Part shown: positions 3,001 to 56,710 of the stretch, one piece after another
Layout of the letters: every line of letters begins with the position of its first letter
How positions within the stretch are numbered: position 1 is the first letter of the stretch
NCBI GenBank assembly: GCA_046313915.1
Contig: JBKBXX010000005.1
Coordinates: 1 to 57,137 of the forward strand
Length of the DNA stretch: 57,137 bases
Direction: 5' to 3'
Source: Burkholderiales bacterium
GTDB taxonomy: Bacteria; Pseudomonadota; Gammaproteobacteria; Burkholderiales; SG8-41
The notes under the pieces: model-generated
The model's database searches: none
Seen by the model: only the letters and a program-made list of their open reading frames with translations
Told to the model about the DNA's origin: nothing
Made by a program: the position numbers and the translations under genes

Positions 3001-4022
3001 TCATCGCGGCCGGCGAGTGGGTCTTCGGTGCCGCGTGTGCGCAGATCAAGGCGTGGCAGGAGGCAGGCATCCAGTGCGTGCCGGTGGCGGTCAATCTTTC
3101 CGGCCGTCAGTTGCTGACGCGCGGCTTCAGCAGCCATGTGCGGCGCCTGCTCGACGAATATGGCACCGATCCGCAGCTGCTCGAGATCGAGATCACCGAG
3201 AGTTCACTGATGGCCAATACCGAAGATGTGATCCGCACGCTCGAGTATCTGGAATCGATAGGGGTGCGCATCTCGGTGGATGATTTCGGCACCGGTTATT
3301 CCAGCCTGAGTTACCTCAAGCGCTTCCCGCTCGATGCGCTGAAAATCGACAGTTCCTTCGTGCGCGAGATCACCACCAACGCCGAAGACGCGACCATCGT
3401 CCGCGCGATCATTTCCATGGCGAGCAGCCTCGGCCTGAAAGTGGTGGCCGAAGGCGTCGAGACCGAAGCGCAGATGAATTTTCTTGCCGCCAACGGCTGC
3501 GACGAGATCCAGGGTTACCATCTGTCGCGACCGATGGCGGCCGAACAGTGCGGGGAATGGCTGATGCGGAAACCGCGTCTGTCACAGCCGCTGGCGTTGC
3601 GCGGCAACGCGCCCGCCGTGCTGCTGGTGGACGACGACGAAGACATGCTGATCCTGCTGATGCGCGCCTTGAGCCAGGACGGCTATTTCATCCTGACCGC
3701 GTACAGCGCCGAAGAGGCTTTCGAAGTCCTGAGCCGGCACAAGGTCGATGTCGTCGTCGCCGATCAGCAATTGCCGGGCATGTCGGGAGTCGAATTCCTG
3801 CAGCGGGTCAAATCGCTCCATCCGGCGACGGTGCGCATCATGTGCTCGGCGCTGGCCGATTTCCGGATGGTCAGCGAGGCCGTCAACAAAGGCGAGATTT
3901 TCCGCTTCGTGCCCAAGGACATGGATCCGCGGCAGTTGCGCCAGGATGTGCGCGATGCGCTCTCCGCTAAAGGCGGCTACGCTGCCGGCGGCGCGACGTT
4001 TCCCGGCACCGGTTCCGCCTGA
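3..4022 (+). CDS. GAF-GAF-PAS(x4)-GGDEF-EAL-REC c-di-GMP signalling protein (5' end runs off the window)
   Basis: Frame is open to the window edge. Two GAF-like segments, four PAS/PAC repeats (e.g. HPDD...EKRFVRKDG..W), AHYDDLTGLPNR, FGGDEF, VEALLRW, DDFGTGYSS and a C-terminal receiver (LLVDDD...ADQQLPGMSG). Confidence 0.93.
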   Translation, partial: TRDILHTETGRRRERALARNYQSSVSLPLFAEGRCIGAISIYAREADAFDADEITVLSTLAQDISYGIDALRLRAARERDELNLRRLTRARSVMAKVNHALVHAEDESGLLQQACHVLVESGSYCLAWVGLAQDDAHAPIRVAAAAGGDPGEAQTGKAGVIADGGQQSMMEHVIATGKAYVSQDLLSDAKFASARGQRQRGYRAAITLPLTADGHCIGGLGICASEAQVFDAQEIDLLEELANDLAYGIRTLRSRVARERAEASAHENEQRLRAMFEQAAVGITRVDLDGVLLEVNQKFCDMLGYRREELLGRRIKDITHPDDYGQGAQYRMQLHHGETKSVTGEKRFVRKDGTIMWARRSMSVARDAAGNPQYVISVVEDITQHKEMEERFRATFEQAAVGLMHSSLDRRFLLVNRKFCDMLGYTADELLRMSATAVHHPEDSDKDRLLEQKLIAGEIDTFSFEKRYIRKDGRVIWANRTVSLVRDDAGRPKYFIRVVEDITARKEAEQRYRATFDSAPVGIMHTDVRSHAILHANPKLCEILGYTREELLSMTTSDIPHPDFVGSDQPQYLQQMLEGRMASHASERLYRRKDGSFVWVNRTISLVRDPAGNPLYFIRIVEDISDRKRAVTALRESEEKFRQLADNIPEVFWIADIGMRELLYLSPLYEKVTGMPVAKAMKHPHRCLEIVHPEDRGRVREARRALPHGIYNIEYRVMCPDGSLRWVHDQAYPVRDGNGNIYRIAGIAADITQRKAAEERLVYLAHYDDLTGLPNRVLFRDRLEQTLAQARRRNWLVGVMMLDLDRFKVTNDSLGHSFGDSLLKQVAARLQQCVRVGDTVGRFGGDEFGIVLNDLGNAADARLVAQKVLETFSAPFPIERDEVYITASIGISMYPMDSDDLEVLIKSADTALHRAKDAGRNNFQFYTAEMNARILHRMNMENSLRRALERREFLLHYQPKASLTSGITTGVEALLRWQHPEYGLVLPGEFVPLLEETGMIIAAGEWVFGAACAQIKAWQEAGIQCVPVAVNLSGRQLLTRGFSSHVRRLLDEYGTDPQLLEIEITESSLMANTEDVIRTLEYLESIGVRISVDDFGTGYSSLSYLKRFPLDALKIDSSFVREITTNAEDATIVRAIISMASSLGLKVVAEGVETEAQMNFLAANGCDEIQGYHLSRPMAAEQCGEWLMRKPRLSQPLALRGNAPAVLLVDDDEDMLILLMRALSQDGYFILTAYSAEEAFEVLSRHKVDVVVADQQLPGMSGVEFLQRVKSLHPATVRIMCSALADFRMVSEAVNKGEIFRFVPKDMDPRQLRQDVRDALSAKGGYAAGGATFPGTGSA

Positions 4023-4047
4023 ACGAGCCGGTCGCAGGCGGGCCGAA

Positions 4048-4416
4048 CTAGTCCACCAGCACGGCCGCCACGACCTTTCTACCCTCTGCAATCAGGATGT
4101 TATAGGTGCGGCAGGCCGCCTTGCTGTCCATCACTTCGAGGCCGACGCCGGCCGCCGTGAGCACCCGCGACAGCGCGGGAGCGGGGAAGCGCAGCACGCT
4201 GCCGGTGCCGAGGATCACGATTTCGGGCTTCAACTCGAGCAGGGATGCGAAATCCTGTGCGCCCAGCGTTTCGAAGTTTTCGATTTCCCACGGCGCGACC
4301 CGTTCCGCGGTCACGACGACGTGTTTTTCATGGTGCACGTGATTGACCGCGACGTAGCCGGGGCCATAACCGGTAAAAACGTTGTGCCCGCTTGCGGTGG
4401 CGAGATGGAGCTTCAT
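4048..4416 (-). CDS. Mth938-like (DUF498) protein
   Basis: MKLHL start; PEIVILGTG...[20 protein letters not shown] motif; divergent from alaC. Confidence 0.85.
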
Positions 4417-4577
4417 GGGCTGGCAATAAGCTGCTGATTTGCTTTGAATTAGTTGCTCCGTTAAAATTATACGCTTTTTCACCCGTGTGTCGTTGCCGGC
4501 GGCGTGCTGCAGTCTCCATGGCCGTTCGCGGTACGGGGTGGATCCTGAACGATGATTTGCTGATTGCCACTGGAGCT

Positions 4578-5762
4578 ATGGAAGAGTTTTCCCGCATCAA
4601 ACGGTTGCCGCCGTATGTGTTCAACGTTACCGGCGAACTCAAGCTTGCGGCACGCCGCCGCGGCGAAGACATCATCGACTTCAGCATGGGCAATCCCGAT
4701 CAGCCCACGCCGCGGCATATCGTCGACAAGCTGATCGAGAGCGTGCAGCGTCCGGATACGCACCGTTATTCGGTATCCAAAGGCATTTCCAGGCTGCGGC
4801 GTGCGATCTGCAACTGGTACAAGACACGCTACGATGTCGATCTTGATCCGGATACGGAGGCGATAGTCACGATCGGCTCGAAGGAAGGCATTGCGCATCT
4901 TGCGCTCGCCACGCTCGACACCGGCGACATCGTGCTGGTACCCAACCCGAGCTATCCGATCCACATCTACGGGCCGGTGATCGCCGGAGCGGACATCCGC
5001 CATGTGCCGATGCAGGCTGGCGTGGATTTCTTCGAATCGCTGCAGAAGGCGATCCGCGACACCTACCCCAAGCCCAAGATGCTGATCGTCAATTTTCCGA
5101 GCAATCCCACCACGCAATGCGTCGATCTGGCTTTTTTCGAGCGGCTGATCGAGGTGGCGCGCGAGCACGATATTTACGTGGTGCACGATCTCGCCTATGC
5201 GGACATCGTGTTTGACGGCTATCAGGCGCCTTCGATCATGCAGGTTCCCGGCGCGCGGGACATCGCGGTCGAATTCTTCACCATGTCGAAAAGCTACAAC
5301 ATGGCGGGCTGGCGGGTCGGCTTCATGGTGGGCAATCGCGAGCTGGTGACGGCACTGGCGCGCATGAAAAGCTATCACGATTACGGCACCTTCACCCCGA
5401 TCCAGGTGGCCTCGATCATCGCGCTCGAAGGGCCGCAGGATTGCGTCGATGCCGTGCGCATGGTCTACCAGGGACGGCGCGACGTCATGTGCAGCGGGCT
5501 GGAGGCGATCAACTGGAAAGTCGAAAAACCGAAGGCGACGATGTACGTGTGGGCGCCGATCCCCGAGCCGTACCGCGCCATGGGTTCGCTCGAATTCTCG
5601 AAGAAGCTGCTGGTGGAGGCCAGGGTGGCGGTGGCGCCCGGCACGGGTTTTGGCCATTACGGCGACGATCATGTGCGATTCGCCCTGATCGAAAACGAGG
5701 CACGCACGCGACAGGCACTGCGCGGGATCAAGGAAATGTTCAAGAAGGATGGGCTGCTTTGA
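4578..5762 (+). CDS. alaC: PLP-dependent class I aminotransferase (alanine transaminase AlaC type)
   Basis: [25 protein letters not shown] and [12 protein letters not shown] (PLP Lys); GGAG upstream of ATG 4578. Confidence 0.9.
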
Positions 5763-45438: not shown

Positions 45439-47574
45439 TCAGGCGGTGAGCCGGCGGTAGATTCCGGCGACTTTGAGCGGCAGGCGCGCAACATCGTCCA
45501 CCAGTGTCCAGTTGACCTCGCCGTACATGTGCGGCAGATAATCACGCGCTTCGCGGTCTATGGTGATGCAGAAAGGCTTGATGCCGGCGCGGTGGGCTTC
45601 GGCGAGCGCCTGCCGCGTGTCCTCGATGCCGTATTCGCCACGGTAGTGATCGCTGTAATCGTCGGGCTTGCCGTCGGAGAGCGTGATCAGGAGTTTGGTG
45701 CGCGCCTCGACCTGGTTCAAGAGCATCGTGAGATGACGGATCGCCGCACCCATGCGCGTATAATCCTGGGGCCGGATGCCGGCGATCCTGCTTTTTACCG
45801 TGGCGCCGTAAGGTTCGTCGAAACGTTTGACGCGGAAGATCTCGCAGCGTTTGCGCGTGATGCCCGAAAAACCGTAGATTGCGTAACGGTCGCCCAGCAC
45901 TTCCAGCGCTTCGCACAGCATCGCCAGGGCTTCGCGCTCGGCATCGTTGATCCAGCCCTTGGTCGAGCCGCTCATGTCGATCATGAACATCACCGCGAGA
46001 TCGCGCTCGGCCTTGTGGCGCCTGACAAACAAACGTTCGGCGAGTTCCATGCCGCTTTTCATGTCGGCATAAGCCGCGATCACGGCGTCGAGGTCGATGT
46101 CGTCGCCGTGCGGCTGTTTCCTGAGCAGCCTGTCCTCGCCGCGCAGCAGCTCGAAAGTGCGCTTCAGCTGTGCCACCTGCGGCGAATACCTGGCGAGCGT
46201 GGCATCGACAAAAGCGGCATCGCCGGGATGCACGTCGAGCTCGCGCAGCACGCACCAGTTCTTGCGGTAATGGCGGCGTCTGCAATCCCACTCGTTGTAG
46301 AGGAAGGCGCCTTCTTCGTGATAGACCCCTTTCCAGACATCCGCCGGATCCTGTTCTGCGCGCCGGCTCTGCTGGTAGTCGCCAGCGCCCGCCGGCGTCA
46401 GATAGTCGTCGGGGATCTCTCCCAGATCCTGCAGGATGGAGTGCATGAGCTGGCTGACGTTCGCGGGCGGGGCGAGCGGTTCGCCATCGAGCACGAGCTG
46501 GTGAGCCGGGCCATCGTGCGTCACGGAAGACGCGATGGTTTGGACCGAAAAGCGCTCCGCGCCGGGGCGACGTGCCGGGCTGCTGCCGTCCCTGGCTTCG
46601 AGCAGCTGCGCCAGCGCCGACCGGAACTCGGCTTTCTCTCTCGCAAGGCGCGTCTCGCGTACCGCCGCGGCCTGCTCGGGATGCAAAGCCGGGCTGTAAC
46701 AGTAGTGCGCGGCAACCATGTCGGCGTAGACCCGCGAGAGCAGCGCGATGCTGTCGTTGACGGTCGCGGCGGGATCGGCAAGTGACGTGCTGCGGGGGTC
46801 GGCAGAGGCGTTTTCCCGCAGTTTTTCCATTTCACGTGCCAGCCCCGGCAGTGCGCGCGCAATGCACGCTTCGAGCCGGACGGTTTCGAGCGAGTTGAGC
46901 AACGCCAGTGCGCGCTGGGGATCGGGATATCGCGCACACGCCGCGGCGAGATCGACGTTGAACGTGCCGAATCGTCCCTGGGCCCACAGCAGTGTCGCTA
47001 TCGCCTTGTAAATAAAGAAGTTTTCTTCACGGCTCGGGCCCAGCGCGATGCGCGGCGGCAAAAACAGCGTTTCGGTATCGGTATAGGCGTGGGCCGCGGC
47101 AGCGAGCCGCAGGCGCCGCCCCGAGAGGCCGCAGACGAAAAGTTGCAATACCTGCACGACCTCTTCGAAGGACACGGCCGTGTCGGCCTGGCGCGAGCAC
47201 GCGGCGAATTCGCCGACGTTCTTGAAAACGGCGCTGCCGCGGTAGAGACCTTCGCGGTCGTAAGTGTCCATGGCGGCGATGATCCAGCTTTCGGCGGCGG
47301 CGAGATCGAGGCGTGCCAACGCATCCGGCGCGGCGGCGGCGAACTGATAGGCCATTTCGGCATTGGTGCGGGCGATGATCGCCACCCAGTGCAGAACGAA
47401 ATCCTGCCGCGCACGCTCGAGCCGTGCGAGCGCCGCAGCGAGTCCCGCCGCAGTGCGGCGCGAGGAAAGAACCGGATCGAGCAGCTCGTCGAGCCGTTCT
47501 TCGAGGACGGGCGCGGGCAGGGGGCTCGCGGCGGCCGTCCGCGACGGCTCAGAAGAGCGAGGCGGCGAGCTCAT
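45439..47574 (-). CDS. CbbO/NorD-like VWA-domain protein
   Basis: YNEWD...Y...WC.L.E; MIDAS DMSGST...[10 protein letters not shown]...LSDGKP; overlaps the ATPase stop. Confidence 0.88.
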
Positions 47575-48382
47575 TGATCGCCCGCAGCATTTCGGGATCG
47601 TCGGAGAGCGCTTCGGCGATGGCGCCGCTGCACGCGGTGCCGGGCGCGATGCCGCGCATCATCAGCTTGGCGGCATGCACCAGCAGCCGCGTCGAGGCGC
47701 CTTCGTCGAGGCCGTTGCCTTTGAGATTGCGCGTCATGTGGGCGAGTCTGATCAGCCTGTCGGCGCCGGCTTCGTCGAGACCGCTCTCGGTCATGATGAT
47801 TTTCTTTTCGAGCGCGGCGGCAGGATAGCCGAACTCGATGGCGACGAAGCGCTGGCGGGTGCTTTGCTTCAACTCCTTCAGCACACTCTGATAGCCGGGG
47901 TTGTACGACATCGTCAACACGAACTCGGCAGGCGCCTGCAGCAGTTCGCCGCGTTTTTCCATCGGCAGGATGCGGCGATCGTCGGCGAGCGGGTGAATGA
48001 CGACGGTGGTGTCCTTGCGCGCTTCGACTACTTCGTCGAGGTAGCAGATGCCGCCGCAACGCACCGCGCGCGCGAGCGGCCCGTCGACCCAGACGGTTTC
48101 GTTGTTGGTGATCAGATAGCGGCCGACCAGGTCGGAAGCGGTGAGATCATCGTGGCAGGAAACCGTGATCAGCGGGCGCCTGAGTCGCCACGCCATGTAT
48201 TCCATGAAGCGCGTCTTGCCGCAGCCGGTCGGGCCTTTGAGCAGTACCGGAATCCGGCTCGCGTAAGCGGCTTCGAACAGTGCGATTTCATCGCCGACAG
48301 GCTCGTAGTACGGCTCTTTTTCGATCAGATGCGATTCGGGCTTGAGCACCCGGGCATGGAAAGACGCGACTTTTGACGTCAT
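47549..48382 (-). CDS. CbbQ/NirQ/NorQ (MoxR) AAA+ ATPase
   Basis: [46 protein letters not shown]. Confidence 0.92.
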
Positions 48383-48440
48383 GTCGAAAACCTGGAATCG
48401 GCGTTTATCGGCGGCTGAGAATCTGGTTTTTGAGACAGAC

Positions 48441-49337
48441 CTAGTCGCCGAGCGACTCGTAGAGCTTGTCCTGGGCATCGGCCAGTTCTGCGGCCTTGTC
48501 GGTCGGTGCCAGCGCCTTGCGCTGTTTATAGCGCTCGATGCGCTTGTGCGAAGCATCGGGTTTGAGAGGTATGGTTTTCTCGCCAAACAACGTCTGTTTC
48601 AAAAGCCGAAAGCCGAACTTGAGCAGTTTCACCTCGTCGTGCATCAGCGCCTGCTTGAATGCGGGTTCCAGGTCGAACACTTCGTCGAAGCCGGCACTGG
48701 CCACGAATGCGCGGAAGCCGTCGAGGTCATAACTTGCCAGAAAGAACAGCTCGAAACTGCGTTGCGAAGGCTTGCCGACGGTGGGACCGGCGGAGCGCTT
48801 CTTAAGGATGATCTGTCGCCATTCGCGGTTGATCTCGTCGTACTCGTCTACGCCCTGATCGTGGCGGTACTCGCCGACCGTCTGCACTACCGGTTCCTGG
48901 TGGCCGAGGCAGTGATCTTCCCGGACGACGAAATAGCCGTCCTCTTCGGCAGGGGAATCTTTTTTCCGCATCGACACCAGCCCCAGCGCGTAATAGCGGC
49001 AGGCGGCGGGGCGATCGGTGTAGACGCCGCAGCCTTCGGCGGTGAGATGGATGCACGCAGTCGAACCGTCGCGGGTCCGCAGCTTGAGTCCCGGCATGCC
49101 GTGCCCATCCATGGCGAAATCCATGGTATAGGTATCGATGAATTCACGCGAAGTGATGCCGAAGCGGCGCTTGAGCCGCAGCACGTCGTATGGCGTGAGC
49201 AGGATGTCGCTATTCTCGCAGCACTTGTTGAAACAGGCGATGCCTTTGTGGCAACGGAACTGGAACTTGTCATCGAGGCCGAGCTGAACCGGGATGATGG
49301 GGCTGGCAGGCGCCGATTGGTCTGAAGCATTGCTCAT
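48441..49337 (-). CDS. YkgJ-family (CxxCxxCC-like) cysteine-cluster protein
   Basis: [22 protein letters not shown]...GC.VY.DRP..CR.Y, HCLG. Confidence 0.85.
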
Positions 49338-49384
49338 ATACGGTCACGGAAAATCTGGGCGGCATTACGATCACGCCACCGCTG

Positions 49385-49430
49385 AAAAAAAACACAGAGG
49401 CCCGGATGCATTATACATCCGGGCCTCTGT
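49385..49430 (-). terminator. Rho-independent terminator after aprA
   Basis: 15-bp perfect stem (49394-49408 with 49416-49430), 7-nt loop, then an 8-U run on the minus strand. Confidence 0.88.
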
Positions 49431-49455
49431 AGCGGTTATATTGCCGCTTTGTGCC

Positions 49456-51372
49456 TCAGTCCTTGATCAGCTGCACGTAGGGCTCTTTCCACAGCTTCCA
49501 CTTCCTGGTCTCGCGGTCGTACTGCGAATTGGTGAAGCACTTCCAGTTCTGGTCGTCGACGTAATTGAAGTCGGTGCGATAGTAGTAGCCGGGATAGCGT
49601 GTTTCTTCACGGAACTGGATGTGTTTCATGTGGCACTCGGCGGCGATGATGCGGTGATAGTTTTCCCAGGCGCGCAGCAGTTCGTGCAGATCCTTGGCGC
49701 GCATCTTGAGCGAGTCTTCTTTGATCATCTCGAGTTTTTTCTCGCAGATCTCGAGCATCTTCGCGTTCGTCTGGTACCAGGTTGAAACGCCCGCGCAGTA
49801 TTCGTCCATGATTTTCTGCAGCCGGAACTGCAGCATCTTGGGCGTGATGTAATGCGGGTTGACGTCGATCGCCGTGGTGTAGTCCTTGTGCTGCAGGAAG
49901 GTTTTCACCGGACGGTAGATTTCCTCGACCAGGTCCTGCACGCTGCGGGACAGTTCGGGTTTCCAGTCCTTGTTGTCGAGTGCGAACTTGACCATTGCCT
50001 TGGCGGCGATCCGGCCTTCGACATGCGAGCCCGAAGAAAACTTGTGGCCGGAGGCGCCGACGCCGTCGCCGGCGGTGAACAGGCCTTTGACGGTGGTCAT
50101 GCGATTGTAGCCCCACGACCACTCCTTCGGCGCGCCCGGAATGTCGGTCGGTCCCGAGACCCAGATGCCGGCGCAGCCCGCGTGCGAGCCGAGCAGGTAG
50201 GGCTCGGTCGGCATGATCTCGGAAGGCTGTTTGTCGGGCTCGATGTTCTCGCCAGCCCAGATGCCGCACTGGGCGATGGTCATGTCGAGGAAGTCTTCCC
50301 AGGCTTCGGCTTCGAGATGCTTGACTTCCTTCGGCGTCATTTTTTCCGCCAGCCGTGCCATGGCCCCCGGCGTGTCCATCAGGATCGGGCCGCGGCCTTC
50401 CTTCATCTCGTTCAGCATGATGTGGTTGCGCAGGCAGGTGCCGGGCACGCCTTGGCCATATTTGCCGAAGCGCTTCTCGTCCTTGATGAGGTGGCCGTTG
50501 ATCTTGTTGTAATCTTCGCCGGCGCCGTTCATCACCTGCGCCTTGAACAGCAGGAACCAGGCGCCGACGGGGCCGTAGCCGTCCTTGAAGCGCGCCGGCA
50601 CGAAACGGTTTTCCATCATGGTCATGGTGGCGCCGCACTCGGCGGCCATGGCGTAGGTGGAGCCGGCGTTCCACACCGGGTACCACGCGCGGCCCACGCC
50701 TTCGCCGATCGAACGCGGACGGAATACGTTGACAGCGCCGCCGCACACCAGCAGGCAGCATTTGAATTTGTAGATGTAGAGCTTGTGTTCGCGCACCGAG
50801 AAGCCCGCCGCGCCGGCAACGCGATTGGGGTCGTTCTTGTCGGTGACCATGCGCACGATGAACACGCGTTCCTGGATGTTTTCGACGCCGAGTGCTTTTT
50901 TCGCGGCTTCGGCGACGATCCATTTATAGGATTCGCCGTTGATCATGATCTGCCATTTGCCCGAGCGCACCGGCTTGCCGCCTTCCGAGAGCTTCTTGTC
51001 CTCGTCGCCGGGCTGTTTCCAGATCGGCAGCCCCCACTCCTCGAAGTTGTGCACCGAATCGTCGACGTGCCGGCCGACGTCATAAACCAGGTCTTCGCGG
51101 ATGATGCCCATCAGATCGTTGCGCACATAACGCACGTAGTCGGCGGGGTCGTTTTCCCCCATGTAGGTATTGATCGCCGATAGTCCCTGCGCCACGGCGC
51201 CCGAGCGATCCATCGCCGCCTTGTCGACCAGCTTGATCTTCAGCCCCTTGCCCTCGGCCCAGCGCATGACCTCGAATGCCGCGCCGCAGGCGGCCATGCC
51301 GCCGCCGATGATCAGGATATCGACCTCTTCCTCGATGATCTCCGGGTTTCCGAATCCGAATTGTTCTGCCAT
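49456..51372 (-). CDS. aprA: Adenylylsulfate (APS) reductase alpha subunit
   Basis: IIGGGMAACG, RSGAVAQGLSAINTY, WQIMINGESYK, ARFKDGYGPVGAW, GHKFSSGSH. Confidence 0.97.
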   Translation of the reverse strand: MAEQFGFGNPEIIEEEVDILIIGGGMAACGAAFEVMRWAEGKGLKIKLVDKAAMDRSGAVAQGLSAINTYMGENDPADYVRYVRNDLMGIIREDLVYDVGRHVDDSVHNFEEWGLPIWKQPGDEDKKLSEGGKPVRSGKWQIMINGESYKWIVAEAAKKALGVENIQERVFIVRMVTDKNDPNRVAGAAGFSVREHKLYIYKFKCCLLVCGGAVNVFRPRSIGEGVGRAWYPVWNAGSTYAMAAECGATMTMMENRFVPARFKDGYGPVGAWFLLFKAQVMNGAGEDYNKINGHLIKDEKRFGKYGQGVPGTCLRNHIMLNEMKEGRGPILMDTPGAMARLAEKMTPKEVKHLEAEAWEDFLDMTIAQCGIWAGENIEPDKQPSEIMPTEPYLLGSHAGCAGIWVSGPTDIPGAPKEWSWGYNRMTTVKGLFTAGDGVGASGHKFSSGSHVEGRIAAKAMVKFALDNKDWKPELSRSVQDLVEEIYRPVKTFLQHKDYTTAIDVNPHYITPKMLQFRLQKIMDEYCAGVSTWYQTNAKMLEICEKKLEMIKEDSLKMRAKDLHELLRAWENYHRIIAAECHMKHIQFREETRYPGYYYRTDFNYVDDQNWKCFTNSQYDRETRKWKLWKEPYVQLIKD

Positions 51373-51444
51373 TGCCTGATTCCTCTATCTGGGCCTTGTC
51401 ACCGGCTTCGCGCGGCAACCTCGGCCCGGGTTGACGAAAGTGTT

Positions 51445-51909
51445 TCAGCGATTGATGAACTGCGACATGTCGCACTTGTGCGTGCCGTGCGTGAAAAGCG
51501 TCGCATGCTCGCCGATTTCCTTGAGGTCGGCGGCGGGCTTGTTGCCGTAGGGATTGATCGAGCCCTCGGCGGTGGTGCGGATCGGGAATTTGAAGCGTTT
51601 CATCTGGCCGTTGCGGAATTTGATGGTCCACATGATCGAGTCGGAGCCGCGCAGCGGCTGCACCGACGCGCCCATCGGCACCACGTCGGCGTAGTGGCGG
51701 ACTTCGATCGCGTTCTGCGGGCAGATCTTGACGCAGGAATAGCATTCCCAGCACTGCTCGGGTTCCTGGTTGAAGGCTTTCATCGGGTGCCCGGTATGGG
51801 ACCCGTCCTTGTCGAGCAGCATCAGGTCGTGCGGACAGATGTACATGCAGGCGGTCTTGTCCTGTCCCTTGCAGCCGTCACATTTTTCGGTGCGCACAAA
51901 AGTGGGCAT
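51445..51909 (-). CDS. aprB: APS reductase beta subunit (2x[4Fe-4S])
   Basis: CDGCKGQDKTACMYICP, CWECYSCVKICP, KRFKFPIRTT. Confidence 0.97.
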   Translation of the reverse strand: MPTFVRTEKCDGCKGQDKTACMYICPHDLMLLDKDGSHTGHPMKAFNQEPEQCWECYSCVKICPQNAIEVRHYADVVPMGASVQPLRGSDSIMWTIKFRNGQMKRFKFPIRTTAEGSINPYGNKPAADLKEIGEHATLFTHGTHKCDMSQFINR

Positions 51910-52007
51910 GAAGTCTCTCCTTTAATTGAATGTTCAGTGTCTGGTGTTGGGTTGTATATGAACGCTGTTGCCGGCAATCACAAACTCGACGTTTTTCGAT
52001 ACCTTGT

Positions 52008-53225
52008 TCAGCGCGCCGAATGCCCGGTCAGCTTGACCTCGACCCTGTCCGCGTCCTTGATCGAGGCGTAGTAATCGCGCAGGATGGCGAGCACTTCCGG
52101 CCGGCTGAATTCGGCGGGGACCGCTTCGCCTTCCGACAGCCATTTCCTGAGCTTGGTGCCGGAGACGAGCAGTCGGTCTTTTTCGTCGTGGGGGCAGGTG
52201 CGGGCGGAGGCCATGCCGCCGCACTGGTAGCACCAGAACGTCCAGTCGATCTTGAGCGGCCGGGTTTCCAGGGCGTCGGCAGGAATTTCGTCGAAGATAT
52301 GATGCGCATCGAACGGGCCGTAATAGCTGCCGACGCCGGCGTGGTCGCGTCCCACGATCTGATGCGAACAGCCGTAATTCTGACGGAACAGCGCATGCAG
52401 CAGCGCTTCGCGTGGACCGGCGTAGCGCATGTCGAGCGGATAACCCGACTGCACCACGGTTTTTTTCACGAAGTACTTGTCGATCAGCACGCCGATGGCC
52501 CTGGTGCGCACTTCGGCGGGAATGTCGCCGGGCTTGAGGTTGCCGAGCAACGAGTGCACCAGCACGCCGTCGCAGACCTCGATCGCCACCTTGGCCAGGT
52601 ATTCGTGCGAACGGTGCATCGGGTTGCGCGTCTGGAATGCCGCTACCGTCGACCAGCCGTTTGCCTCGAAAGCGGCGCGGGTCTGCGCCGGCGTCATGAA
52701 CAGCGCGCCGTAGCGCTCGGGGAAGCCGCCCCGGGAAAGCACCTTGATCTCGCCCGCGAGATTCACGTCGCCCTGGGCCATCACCATTTTCACGCCGGGA
52801 TGATCGAGGTCGGTGGTCTTGAACACGGTGGCGCATTCGTGCGCCTTGTTGATTTTGTATTTCTCGGTCACTTTCATGGTGGCGAGAATCCCGCCATCGT
52901 CGGGATCGACGAGCGCAATCTCCTTGCCGGTGTGGAAAGTGGCCGCGGTTGCCTCATCGGTGGACAAGGTGATGGGGATGGGCCAGAACAGGCCGCTCGC
53001 CGTGCGCATGCCGTCGCAGACACCTTGCCAGTCGGCGTGAGTCATGAAGCCGTCGAGCGGTGTGAAGCCGCCGATGCCCAGCATGATGATGTCGCCCTTT
53101 TCGCGCGAGCTGACCGTGATTCGGGGCAGGGAGGCGGCGTGTTTTTTTTCTTCGCTCAGCGCCGCGCCTTCGAGCAGCAGCGGCTTGAGCTTTCCTCCTC
53201 CGTGGGGATTGACCAGTTTCGGCAC
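52008..53225 (-). CDS. sat: Dissimilatory-type sulfate adenylyltransferase (ATP sulfurylase)
   Basis: [33 protein letters not shown]...CPH Zn site, SGTKLR; GTG start with GGAG RBS. Confidence 0.96.
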
Positions 53226-54038: not shown

Positions 54039-55484
54039 ATGAAACATCGAAGCGGCATCATCAGGGCAGTTTGGGGATGCCTGGCCATGGCGATGGTTTC
54101 GGCCGCGGAATCCGACGACGCGGTTTTTCTCGATCCTCGTGGCGTTGTCGCGAAAACCACCGCCCAGCCGCACCAGTACTGGCGACCGCAAACTCCGCTC
54201 ACCGTGACGGCCCCGCGCCGTGCCGAGCAGCTGGACACCCAGGCCCCGCTCACGCTGTCCCAACTCACCGAGTTTGCATTGCGCAACAATCCCAAGACGC
54301 GTCAGGCCTGGCTTGCCGCGCGTGCGGCCGCCGCTGGCGTGGCGATCGAGCAGGCCGATCTGTTGCCGCAAATCACGGCCAATGTGGGCGTGACGCGCAC
54401 CTTGCCGGTTTCCGCGACGACGGGATCGGTTGCGCCGTGGATCACGCGCTACGGCCCTTCGATCAGCCTGAGTTATGTGCTGTTCGATTTTGGTGTCCAG
54501 GCGAACCAGGTCGAGGCCGCCGAGTACCGCCTGCTGGCGGCGAATCTTGCCCAGAACCGCATTTTGCAGGACGTCGTGTTCCAGGTGGAACAGGCGTATT
54601 ACCGCCTGATCGGTCTCGACGCGCTGGTGCAGGCCAACGAACTCACGCTCGGCAACATCAGGACGGCTTACGAGGCGGCGCAGAAACGGCGGGAGTCGGG
54701 GCTTGCCACGATTGCCGACGTCTACCGCGTCGAGACGCAGGTGGCGCAGGCCCAGCTCAATCTCGTCCGCAGCCGCGGCGATCTCGAAAAAGCGCGCGGT
54801 CAGCTGGCGGCGGCGGTCGGTTTGCCGGTCAATGGCGTCCTCAAAGTGCAAGCGTTCTCCGCCTTGCCGCGGATCCGCGAAATCACGGCCTCGCTTACCG
54901 ACCTGCTCGATCGCGCCAAAGCGGCGCGGCCCGACCTGGTGGCGGCGGAAGCGCAGGCCCGGGCCGTCCGCGCGACGGCGGAGGCGGTGTCCAAAGCCGG
55001 CTTGCCGTCGCTCGAAATCGCGGGCACCGCGGGGCGCACGGCATTCCAGGACAACCGCCCGATCGTCAACAACTATGCGCTGGGACTGAATCTGCGCATC
55101 CCGCTATTCAGCGGTCTTCGCGATACTTACACGGTGCGCCAGGCCGAAGCGCAGGCCGCGCAGGCCGAGGCGGCACGCGATGCGTTGTATCAGCAGACCG
55201 AACTCGACGTATGGCAGTCTTATTATGATCTGCAGAGCGCGGCGGGCGGCATCGGCAGCACCGAGGCGCAGGTGAAATCGGCGGAACAGACGGCACAGGC
55301 GGCGCTGGCGCGCTACCGCGCCGGTTTCGGCAGCATCCTGGACTTGATCACGGCACAGCAGGACGAGTCCAATGCGCGGGTGCAGCGCATCCAGTCGTAT
55401 CTGGACTGGTTTGTCGCACTCGCGCGGCTCAATTTCTCGCTGGGAGCGGACAACATTCTTGCAGTGGCGGACGACAGAAAATGA
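54039..55484 (+). CDS. TolC-family outer-membrane efflux protein
   Basis: ALRNNP, LFDFG, V.QAYY, LRIPLFSG and RYRAG; two OEP repeats. Confidence 0.9.
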   Translation: MKHRSGIIRAVWGCLAMAMVSAAESDDAVFLDPRGVVAKTTAQPHQYWRPQTPLTVTAPRRAEQLDTQAPLTLSQLTEFALRNNPKTRQAWLAARAAAAGVAIEQADLLPQITANVGVTRTLPVSATTGSVAPWITRYGPSISLSYVLFDFGVQANQVEAAEYRLLAANLAQNRILQDVVFQVEQAYYRLIGLDALVQANELTLGNIRTAYEAAQKRRESGLATIADVYRVETQVAQAQLNLVRSRGDLEKARGQLAAAVGLPVNGVLKVQAFSALPRIREITASLTDLLDRAKAARPDLVAAEAQARAVRATAEAVSKAGLPSLEIAGTAGRTAFQDNRPIVNNYALGLNLRIPLFSGLRDTYTVRQAEAQAAQAEAARDALYQQTELDVWQSYYDLQSAAGGIGSTEAQVKSAEQTAQAALARYRAGFGSILDLITAQQDESNARVQRIQSYLDWFVALARLNFSLGADNILAVADDRK

Positions 55485-56710
55485 AACGTTTGACGATGGC
55501 GGTGGTGTTCATGGTGGTCGGGGCCGTGGTTGCGGCAGGCTACTGGTACTGGCAGCGGCCGGGAAGCGGTGGCGAGACGGTTGGCGGCAAGCCGGCTGAA
55601 ACCGCGGGCAAAGGCAAGGGCAAGGGAGGCGGCGGGGGCGGCGCGCTGGTCGTCAAGGCCGTGCAGGCGGTTGCCAAGCCGATGCCGGTCCTGATCGAGG
55701 CCGTGGGCACGGTGGAATCGGAACACAGCGTCCAGGTCAAAGCCCAGGTTTCGGGCATATTGCAGTCGGTGCTGTTCAAGGAAGGCGACAAGGTCAAGGC
55801 CGGCCAGCTGCTGTTCCAGATCGATCCGCGCACTTTCGAAGCTTCGTACAAACAGGCGCTCGCCCAGCTCGCGCGCGACCAGGCTCAGCTCGAGAACTCC
55901 CGTGTCCAGCAGGAACGGCTCGAACCGCTGCTGAAACGCGAATTCATCACCCGCCAGGAATACGATGTCGCCGTGACTTCCGTCAAATCCCTGGAAGCGA
56001 CGGTTGCCGCCGACCGCGCCCAGGTTGAGCAGGCCCGCCTGCAGCTCGAATTCTCGCGCATCCATGCGCCGATCACCGGACGCACCGGTGCCCTCGCGAT
56101 CAAGCCCGGCAATCTGGTGACCGCGGGCGGCGGCGGGGCGGCGCTGGTCACCATCAACAGCACCGATCCGATCTTGGTTTCTTTCAGCATTCCCGAGCGC
56201 CAGCTCGACCAGATCCGCAACCAGCAGAACGAAAAGGAAATGCGGATCCTGATCTTCGTGGACAGCAACGGACCTCCCGTGGCGGAAGGCAAACTGGTGT
56301 TCATAGACAACACCGTCACGCCCCAGACGGGCACGGTGCTGTTGAAAACGCGCGTGGACAATGGCAAGGAATTGCTGTGGCCGGGACAGTTCGTAAACGT
56401 CCGCATCGTGCTGAGAATCGAGCCCGAGGCGGTGGTCGTGCCTGAAGCTGCGGTGCAACCCGGACAGGACGGCAGTTTCGTCTATCTGATAGACGAAAAC
56501 AACAAGGTGCAGGTGCGGCCGGTCAGGATATCGCGGCAGATACGCAATGAAGTGGTCATCGCCGAGGGCGTCAAGGCCGGCGATCGCGTGATCACTGAAA
56601 TCCCTCAGGCCCTGCAGCCGGGCGCGACCGTGCGTTTGGCGGGCGCCGAAGGCGGTGGTGAAAAAGACGGGAAAGGCAAAGGAGAGAAGAAGGGCAAGAA
56701 TAAATCGTAA
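55481..56710 (+). CDS. RND membrane-fusion protein (MdtA-like)
   Basis: VSGILQSVLFKEG..VKAGQLLFQIDP, IHAPITGRTG, FIDN.V...TGT, LWPGQFV. Confidence 0.92.
   Translation: MKRLTMAVVFMVVGAVVAAGYWYWQRPGSGGETVGGKPAETAGKGKGKGGGGGGALVVKAVQAVAKPMPVLIEAVGTVESEHSVQVKAQVSGILQSVLFKEGDKVKAGQLLFQIDPRTFEASYKQALAQLARDQAQLENSRVQQERLEPLLKREFITRQEYDVAVTSVKSLEATVAADRAQVEQARLQLEFSRIHAPITGRTGALAIKPGNLVTAGGGGAALVTINSTDPILVSFSIPERQLDQIRNQQNEKEMRILIFVDSNGPPVAEGKLVFIDNTVTPQTGTVLLKTRVDNGKELLWPGQFVNVRIVLRIEPEAVVVPEAAVQPGQDGSFVYLIDENNKVQVRPVRISRQIRNEVVIAEGVKAGDRVITEIPQALQPGATVRLAGAEGGGEKDGKGKGEKKGKNKS

Follow-up and report, generated by a model that had tools for sequence, protein, structure and literature searches.

What does a remodelling ATPase of the CbbQ/NorQ type do beside the genes of dissimilatory sulfite oxidation? 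This question is raised by a stretch of DNA of 57,137 nucleotides, hereafter the window, from a Burkholderiales bacterium of the GTDB group SG8-41 (assembly GCA_046313915.1, contig JBKBXX010000005.1, positions 1 to 57,137). In the window, the genes for sulfate adenylyltransferase (sat) and adenosine 5'-phosphosulfate (APS) reductase (aprB and aprA) are followed by a gene for a YkgJ-like cysteine-cluster protein and by a gene pair encoding a MoxR-type AAA+ ATPase, named Q here, and a protein with a von Willebrand factor A (VWA) domain. In environmental sulfur oxidisers and in symbionts, much of the flux from sulfite to sulfate passes through Sat and AprBA, and aprA is a standard marker gene. 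To our knowledge, RuBisCO and the nitric oxide reductase that depends on cytochrome c (cNOR) are the only established clients of the CbbQ/NorQ branch of MoxR ATPases. As judged from sequence comparison, the MoxR-type remodellers of the CbbQO/NorQD family have a third branch, separate from the other two, to which the Q-VWA pair belongs. We favour, as on balance probable, the view that it is dedicated to the dissimilatory Sat-Apr sulfite-oxidation pathway. The evidence is genomic throughout, and it is from this evidence that we infer client and mechanism. An earlier note on this DNA had described the gene row and proposed that the YkgJ-like protein, the ATPase and the VWA protein form one chaperone for APS reductase; its observations are confirmed and its interpretation is partly supported.

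The pair belongs to the CbbQO/NorQD family

Q is a protein of 277 amino acids (aa) encoded at 47549..48382 on the minus strand, the ATG at 48382 being taken as its start rather than that of a longer open reading frame (ORF) beginning with TTG. It consists of a single AAA_5 domain (PF07728, 116.6 bits) followed by a CbbQ_C domain (PF08406, 100.4 bits) and has intact Walker A and B motifs, which, at a length of about 260-280 aa, is the definition of a CbbQ/NorQ-type ATPase. Residues 16-277 align with the solved chains of CbbQ, likewise an AAA_5 plus CbbQ_C ATPase of about 270 aa (339 and 336 bits), and with those of NorQ (333 and 311 bits), and these near-equal scores put Q almost equidistant from the two. 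The Walker A (GPTGCGKT) and Walker B (ICYLDE) motifs align residue for residue with those of CbbQ (5c3c and 6l1q) and NorQ (9qh4); the deposited chain of 9qh4 reads ICYLDQ at the Walker B position.

The VWA protein (711 aa; 45439..47574, minus strand; PF00092, 29.9 bits versus a cut-off of 23.8) is encoded directly downstream of Q, as the partner gene is in CbbQO, and the two genes overlap by 26 nt, in agreement with the overlap reported earlier. Its C-terminal part (aa 421-711; 45442..46314, minus strand) comprises the end of a linker and a VWA domain with a complete metal ion-dependent adhesion site (MIDAS), D533-x-S535-x-S537, T606 and D634. These residues are invariant in 20 VWA orthologues and are aligned to the NorD VWA region, so that the earlier description of the Walker and MIDAS motifs as intact holds. 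Single-sequence and hidden Markov model searches of the PDB matched the NorD chains 9qhd_G and 9qh6_G over residues 421-711 only (E 2e-56), and the best Foldseek matches of the VWA protein are also NorD VWA domains (E 6e-12). The N-terminal ~420 aa were related to NorD by profile-profile comparison only. With this method (hhalign) the probability was 100% for both NorD (columns 139-721) and CbbO (columns 97-721), with about 590 profile columns aligned in the comparison with CbbO, and only the first ~90-130 residues of the VWA protein were left uncovered (the alignment starts at about aa 87-97 for CbbO and aa 129-139 for NorD). Since the alignment spans most of the length, the architecture of an N-terminal helical domain, a linker and a VWA domain appears to be common to this protein, CbbO and NorD. 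With its complete C-terminal MIDAS, its homologous N-terminal domain and linker, and its place directly downstream of Q, the protein is of the CbbO/NorD type. CbbO is longer (~780-840 aa versus 711 aa) and 26% identical in the profile alignment. In the predicted model the mostly helical N-terminal domain (about aa 15-330; 46585..47532, minus strand), which is the clade-specific part, is confident (predicted local distance difference test score, pLDDT, mostly 75-93), and the C-terminal half has low confidence despite its clear sequence match with NorD.

A clade separate from CbbQO and NorQD

Two sets of loci were compared: 80 orthologous loci, each from a genome of a different species and with a VWA protein 52-79% identical over its full length, and 40 further loci with proteins matching the C-terminal 290 aa only, the whole-genome VWA matches splitting cleanly into these two kinds. 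Both sets were labelled by their neighbours, i.e. cytochrome c plus COX1-family genes (norCB), RuBisCO large and small subunit genes, carboxysome genes (by gene sizes only), or a fourth context. In the Q tree (93 rows, after removal of two short ones) an Apr/Qmo-linked clade of 59 sequences was recovered with a Shimodaira-Hasegawa-like approximate likelihood-ratio (SH-aLRT) support of 99, apart from a CbbQ clade of 7 (support 95), which is its neighbour, and a main NorQ clade of 24 (support 97). The VWA tree, built from the C-terminal 300 aa of 120 rows, gave the same picture, with 84 Apr/Qmo-linked proteins (support 95), 8 CbbO (99) and 24 NorD (99). Such trees had been proposed earlier as a check, nesting within true RuBisCO-activase or NorQD clades being the outcome that would have spoken against a new system; the pair falls outside both. 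In the strict sense, it is neither CbbQO, given the separate clade and the absence of RuBisCO genes from the window and from the 80 loci, nor NorQD, given the separate clade and the lack of any NorB or NorC match in its own genome.

Could the pair nevertheless be a NorQD whose task is the insertion of FeB into a nitric oxide reductase with genes elsewhere? In the accessible text of PMC13036017 and PMC9976466, NorQD (structures 9qh4-9qhg) is described as the FeB-inserting chaperone of cNOR. The three-part architecture and the conserved MIDAS are shared with NorQD, identity to solved NorD is 33-37% over the C-terminal 290 aa of the VWA protein, and some public records name VWA orthologues 'nitric oxide reductase NorD', 'nitric oxide reductase activation protein' or 'hypothetical'. 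However, in the host genome (197 contigs, 93.6% complete) no NorB or NorC homologue was found at E <= 1e-5 and more than 50 bits, and the clade is apart from the pairs located in norCB clusters. Moreover, several genomes hold both a norCB-linked NorQD and the pair studied here (e.g. G044, G059, G164 and G200); in a class-level sample of 401 genomes, 68 carry the pair, and at least 20 of these also carry a NorD- or CbbO-type paralogue. We thus consider a function as nitric oxide reductase chaperone extremely improbable. The statement in the earlier note that the window holds neither RuBisCO nor norCB genes is borne out, RuBisCO being encoded on contigs C54 and C172 and NorB/NorC not being found genome-wide; nirS and cox genes, also named there, were not searched for.

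Some members of the clade have additional features. VWA orthologues of ~1010 aa are encoded at L044:9080-12121, at L080:9089-12124 and at about a dozen other Gammaproteobacterial loci, where an extra N-terminal stretch of ~300 aa gives sub-threshold matches to class I S-adenosylmethionine methyltransferases (best 23.3 bits versus a cut-off of 27). Where Q-VWA belongs to the divergent subclade of AprA-less genomes, it is followed by a gene whose product is a large protein (L130:11172-13211 and L131:11263-13209). The L130 protein, the only one scanned, is a methyltransferase domain fused to an ATP-grasp (D-Ala-D-Ala-ligase C) domain, which is a second unexplained tie of the pair clade to methyltransferase folds. 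Two VWA proteins of 653-667 aa that have no adjacent Q (L121:2992-4953 and L122:7876-9879) branch next to the Apr-type clade as its sister group (VWA tree, support 98).

Gene neighbourhoods of the pair

Within the fetched flanks (~10 kb) of the 80 loci, aprBA was found in 20 and qmoAB-hdrCB in 21; no locus has both, which gives 41 with one of them. When only the 50 loci with 6 kb or more of upstream sequence are counted, one or the other was present in 34. The Q gene adjoins the VWA gene in 58 of the 80 loci.

Four arrangements can be distinguished. The first (A), sat-aprB-aprA-ykgJ-like-Q-VWA on one strand, is that of the window and is found whole or in part in L010, L016, L083 and L085. In the window all six genes are on the minus strand: sat (405 aa; 52008..53225; NF003166, 523 bits versus a cut-off of 387; Pfam ATP-sulfurylase and PUA_2), aprB, encoding the APS reductase beta subunit (154 aa; 51445..51909; TIGR02060, 197.6 versus 135.65; APS-reductase_C, PF12139), aprA, encoding the alpha subunit (638 aa; 49456..51372; TIGR02061, 947.7 versus 641.75; FAD_binding_2 and Succ_DH_flav_C), the ykgJ-like gene (298 aa; 48441..49337; PF03692, 33.2 bits versus 23) and the pair. 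Sat, AprB and AprA pass their NCBIfam cut-offs, AprB and AprA at equivalog level. NCBIfam has no family for the YkgJ-like or the VWA protein, and the matches of the ATPase are far below cut-off. From sat to Q the intergenic gaps are 98, 72, 118 and 58 bp, which corroborates the row of six genes on one strand with gaps below about 120 bp that had been read from the sequence. AprA is a flavoprotein of the fumarate-reductase family and belongs to the Qmo-type (lineage-II-like) group; 72 other genomes of the sample have an AprA with 70-86% identity to it. The host qmoA, qmoB, hdrC and hdrB genes are located on the small contigs C89 and C167, and their presence indicates that Apr is here of the Qmo-dependent kind. 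In this host, qmoA is split by a contig break (C89:2-733 / C167:211-4678), qmoB-hdrC-hdrB continue on C167, and a gene for a LysR-type regulator lies just upstream of qmoA.

In the second arrangement (B), found in Burkholderiales, the pair is divergent from the genes of another Apr lineage (AprA 48% identical), which follow a gene for a ~280-aa protein in the aprM position; this protein, encoded for instance in L024, has no Pfam match. Two Apr lineages thus adjoin the same Q-VWA pair. The third arrangement (C) occurs in Gammaproteobacteria (records named e.g. Acidiferrobacter, Sulfuricaulis and Thiohalobacter) and has qmoA-qmoB-hdrC-hdrB divergent from Q-VWA. In the fourth (D), resistance-nodulation-division (RND) efflux genes precede Q-VWA and no apr gene is present. 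The same flanking genes are found upstream of sat in the window (54039-56710, plus strand), where two genes encoding proteins of 481 aa and 409 aa resemble, by size and order, an RND outer-membrane factor and a membrane-fusion protein, without Pfam annotation. They directly border Q-VWA in the apr-less loci L019, L033, L046, L050 and L070, so that sat-aprBA-ykgJ behaves as an insertion/deletion cassette at a fixed chromosomal place. A gene for a Metallophos_2 phosphoesterase is located directly upstream of Q in 16 loci; for the protein in the aprM position and this phosphoesterase, the L024 coordinates are 3896-4738 and 4843-5376. In 28 genomes the pair and aprA are on one contig, and in 14 of these they are within 25 kb of each other; by our own estimate, fewer than 1 in 28 would be expected at this distance by chance in a genome of ~3 Mb.

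The frequent neighbourhood with qmo genes raises the possibility that the pair serves another enzyme of sulfur oxidation, either QmoAB-HdrCB, with its HdrA-like flavoproteins and HdrB-type clusters, or Sat, and that Apr is a mere neighbour in a pathway island. It is from qmoA-qmoB-hdrC-hdrB, and not from aprBA, that the pair is divergent in 21 of the 80 loci, aprBA being there often 8-25 kb away, and the Qmo/Hdr subunits hold several cofactors that could need insertion. However, five genomes with the pair beside an AprM-type aprBA have no QmoB orthologue (only two partial matches of 34-38% identity were found), which makes Apr, and not Qmo, the element common to arrangements A, B and C. In the window, too, the pair adjoins aprBA while qmoAB-hdrCB are on other contigs. 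As for Sat, it is absent along with AprA from three of the five genomes of arrangement D that keep the pair. A client among these other enzymes therefore appears to us quite improbable.

Co-occurrence with AprA

The 68 pair-bearing genomes mentioned above comprise 64 with full-length or contig-cut matches and 4 intermediates, two of which were confirmed beside qmoAB-hdrCB. AprA, which was scored in 400 genomes, is encoded in 56 of these 68, versus 108 of the 400 overall. The pair-bearing genomes span 51 family codes, and 43 of these codes hold a genome with both the pair and AprA. The claim that linkage to apr is conserved therefore stands in so far as the linkage recurs across species in three arrangements and the genes co-occur genome-wide; it falls short in that the linkage is not obligate, 12 of the 68 genomes having no AprA match.

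Many of these genomes also encode RuBisCO (169 of the 401 sampled, and 54 of the 68 with the pair), and the host has two RuBisCO loci. With the ATPase clade grouping with CbbQ and not with the main NorQ clade, the pair might be a further RuBisCO activase, a CbbQO isoform of autotrophic sulfur oxidisers encoded away from the cbb genes. Stratification by RuBisCO speaks against this. Of the genomes that have RuBisCO, 49 of the 92 with AprA carry the pair versus only 5 of the 77 without it; of the 16 genomes with AprA and no RuBisCO, 7 carry it. The pair thus tracks AprA, and not RuBisCO or autotrophy. No RuBisCO match was found in 14 of the 68 pair-bearing genomes, including the near-complete G052, G064, G317 and G150, nor in any of five Burkholderiales genomes carrying the pair. 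Throughout the 80 loci Q-VWA is never beside cbbLS, cbbM or carboxysome genes. Finally, the host already has a CbbX encoded beside its form I RuBisCO and a second CbbQ/O-type pair. A role as RuBisCO activase is thus very unlikely.

This second pair is located on contig C33 (L005: 4523-7024 + 7149-7997, minus strand). Its ATPase, with an 833-aa VWA partner, and Q are the only two CbbQ_C-type ATPases of the host genome. Like the window pair, it does not adjoin RuBisCO genes, which are found on C54, in a form I locus that also has cbbR, CbbX and FBPase, and in a second locus at the end of C172, where the genes are unannotated and have sizes that look like those of a carboxysome operon. The C33-type pair forms its own subclade beside the RuBisCO-linked CbbQO. 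Its context, common to three genomes (the host, L113 and L120), consists of genes for a small Pfam-less protein, Q, a VWA protein of ~840 aa and a histone-deacetylase-family protein, and on C33 a FAD_binding_2/Succ_DH_flav_C flavoprotein is encoded 1.3 kb upstream of the pair.

Is the pair dedicated to the Sat-Apr pathway?

Several observations weigh against a dedicated function in sulfite oxidation. Six of the 12 pair-bearing genomes without an AprA match are at least 96% complete (G072, G129, G210, G254, G302 and G366); genomes without AprA hold a more divergent subclade of the pair, with uninformative gene contexts. In the five Burkholderiales genomes of arrangement D, AprA and Sat are each found in only two. 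Three of the five, lacking AprA, Sat and RuBisCO matches, keep a VWA orthologue 60-65% identical to that of the window, indicating that the pair persists without the pathway. Conversely, a clear member of the pair is missing from 23 of the 73 genomes with Qmo-type AprA (from 19 when the four intermediates are included), so that Apr is not dependent on it in every genome, and the pair is present in only 2 of the 35 genomes of the sample with AprM-type AprA alone, though the loci of arrangement B show that this combination exists. In Burkholderiales the pair stays near scpAB, DUF2237 and RND genes whatever stands upstream; inheritance of a single arrangement, or a hot spot of integration, could thus account for some of the adjacency in place of repeated selection. 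The trees are quick LG+G4 searches with SH-aLRT support only, and L092, L123 and L127 are on long branches outside the main NorQ and NorD clades. Related genomes are not independent, which overstates the enrichment, and no probability was assigned to it. In addition, the terminator-like hairpin after aprA described below argues against a simple co-transcription in the window. The sequencing runs listed as containing this stretch are DNA runs, with no RNA run among them.

Part of these observations would be accounted for if the pair had a different or broader client and its nearness to apr and qmo came from shared neighbourhood ancestry or from co-transfer of sulfur islands. The pair-bearing genomes without AprA, the three arrangement D genomes that keep an orthologue without AprA, Sat and RuBisCO, the constant place near scpAB and the divergent AprA-less subclade among unrelated genes all point in this direction. 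Against it, lineages of both Beta- and Gammaproteobacteria show the association, in three arrangements that involve Qmo as well as two Apr lineages. Neither the contrast between RuBisCO-positive genomes with and without AprA nor the 14 of 28 same-contig cases within 25 kb would be expected from it. We regard a different or broader client as unlikely.

Under the favoured interpretation of a remodeller serving the Sat-Apr pathway, a working mechanism can be sketched by borrowing from NorQD (accessible text of PMC13036017). By analogy with the two studied sister systems, Q would form a hexamer, to which the VWA protein would bind with its VWA 'finger' as well as its N-terminal domain. A client gripped at the MIDAS site and by the N-terminal domain, the clade-specific part, would next be twisted or pulled as ATP is hydrolysed, and twisting would open it. 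The most likely client would be AprBA, by itself or together with its partner in electron transfer (QmoAB-HdrCB or AprM), and the likely outcome would be insertion or repair of a cofactor, flavin adenine dinucleotide (FAD) or [4Fe-4S], or release of a dead-end state of the enzyme. For a VWA adaptor acting on such a flavoenzyme, ViaA is a functional precedent: the accessible text of PMC10585395 reports that this VWA partner of the MoxR ATPase RavA binds FrdA. AprA, with its FAD_binding_2 and Succ_DH_flav_C domains, belongs to the same flavoprotein family as FrdA. The likeness to RavA-ViaA, a MoxR-class ATPase and VWA partner tied to a respiratory flavoenzyme, is by analogy only; RavA is of a different MoxR subfamily, not CbbQ_C-type, and is not among the PDB matches of Q at E <= 1e-5.

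A more specific proposal, which we put forward as tentative, is that Q-VWA is an AprBA activase that loads FAD or Fe-S clusters or strips a dead-end state, e.g. a stalled FAD-sulfite/nucleotide complex, and that the YkgJ-like protein is a third component of Qmo-type Apr, as a cluster or metal donor or as an electron relay from AprB to QmoAB-HdrCB. If so, two dedicated parts are missing from the Sat-AprBA-Qmo pathway as textbooks give it.

The YkgJ-like protein

The 298-aa product of the gene between aprA and Q has an N-terminal domain of the CxxCxxCC family and a helical C-terminal half. Both its over-cut-off Pfam score and its cysteine pattern make it a member of PF03692 (YkgJ, UPF0153), eight cysteines (C29, C35, C39, C40, C95, C103, C113 and C143) being invariant in alignments of 22 and 25 sequences. 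This pattern and the Pfam description suggest that it binds Zn or an Fe-S cluster. E. coli YkgJ is a protein of ~110 aa; the window protein is much longer, has the helical C-terminal half and belongs to a subfamily tied to aprBA. Public records name its orthologues 'YkgJ family cysteine cluster protein'. The model has a pLDDT of 71.5. No solved fold relative was found, either with Foldseek against the PDB at E <= 0.001 or in a wide VIA-align search (best Z 4.3, helical part only). A complex prediction of AprA (residues 7-638), AprB (1-131) and the YkgJ-like protein (16-252), with alignments of 25 rows each, scored 0.00 versus a mark of 0.32; it was run without controls and counts neither way.

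The tie to Apr is close. Homologues of the YkgJ-like protein are found in 75 of the 401 genomes. Of 73 genomes with an AprA at least 70% identical to that of the window, 71 carry the gene. It is directly downstream of aprA on the same strand in 59, with a gap of 118-530 bp (median 227), on another contig of a fragmented assembly in 10, and more than 100 kb away in 2. Only 3 genomes have the protein without such an AprA. Its tie to Q-VWA is looser: 21 genomes carry the gene without the Q-VWA clade, and it was not found in any of the five genomes that have the pair beside an AprM-type aprBA. The earlier proposal of a three-component chaperone including YkgJ is not supported in that form by these counts, the protein not being a constant partner of the pair. 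The window is better read as holding two modules, YkgJ-like and Q-VWA, that are separately linked to Apr and happen to be neighbours. The YkgJ-like protein would then be a separate accessory of Qmo-type AprBA and not an obligatory part of the Q-VWA machine.

Two candidate relatives were rejected. A 978-aa YkgJ-like fusion in G240 proved not to be a gene, the ORFs of the locus showing overlapping frames in GC-rich DNA. The gene that ends the qmo operon of Desulfovibrio, DVU0851, was considered as a counterpart; it has been published as lacking homologues outside Desulfovibrio. In the Protein Atlas, a YkgJ-family cluster of 309 aa, very similar by language-model features, is commonest in Thermodesulfobacteriota, and sulfate reducers may carry a counterpart of the Apr-linked protein.

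A terminator-like hairpin after aprA

A feature overlooked in the earlier note is a hairpin resembling an intrinsic terminator between aprA and the ykgJ-like gene (49385..49431, minus strand; hairpin 49431-49393). It begins 25 nt past the aprA stop codon and has an 18-bp stem with 10 GC pairs, a 3-nt loop and a run of eight T. A GC-rich hairpin with a T-run is present between the two genes in 18 of the 25 loci examined, 45-110 nt past the aprA stop (292 nt in one locus); its sequence varies from locus to locus, its position does not. This has the look of a conserved element closing aprBA, be it a terminator, an attenuator or a 3' end that stabilises the mRNA. With such a hairpin after aprA, sat-aprBA and ykgJ-Q-VWA are probably separate or attenuated transcription units. 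The ykgJ-like gene is best read as third in the Qmo-type aprBA operon, preceded by an attenuating terminator and independent of Q-VWA. The YkgJ-like protein is then probably made in smaller amounts than AprBA.

Novelty and implications

A literature search found no paper joining Apr or Qmo with NorQ, NorD, CbbQ, CbbO, MoxR or YkgJ, supplementary tables being outside its reach. It found no assembly or repair factor for Apr, in line with the earlier remark that no characterised Apr activase is known, and no function for any member of the YkgJ family, none of the YkgJ papers among the matches listed being on sulfur metabolism. Neither pairs linked to Apr nor a conserved gene following aprA came up in term searches of the accessible text of PMC9976466, PMC13036017, PMC4660213 and PMC5099947. 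What is new here is a third, probably client-specific branch of the CbbQO/NorQD machines, together with an unrecognised YkgJ subfamily linked to aprBA.

The pair clade is abundant in metagenomes, where it has thousands of relatives, and the NorD-type names given to its VWA proteins can mislead metabolic reconstructions into inferring denitrification. The near-constant aprBA-ykgJ-like operon provides a first physiological context for a member of the uncharacterised YkgJ/UPF0153 family. If true, the addition of a third branch, whose tie is to a flavo-iron-sulfur enzyme, would extend the range known for the CbbQ/NorQ machine. More speculatively, the aprBA-ykgJ-like operon may explain the difficulty of making active Apr from sulfur oxidisers in other hosts.

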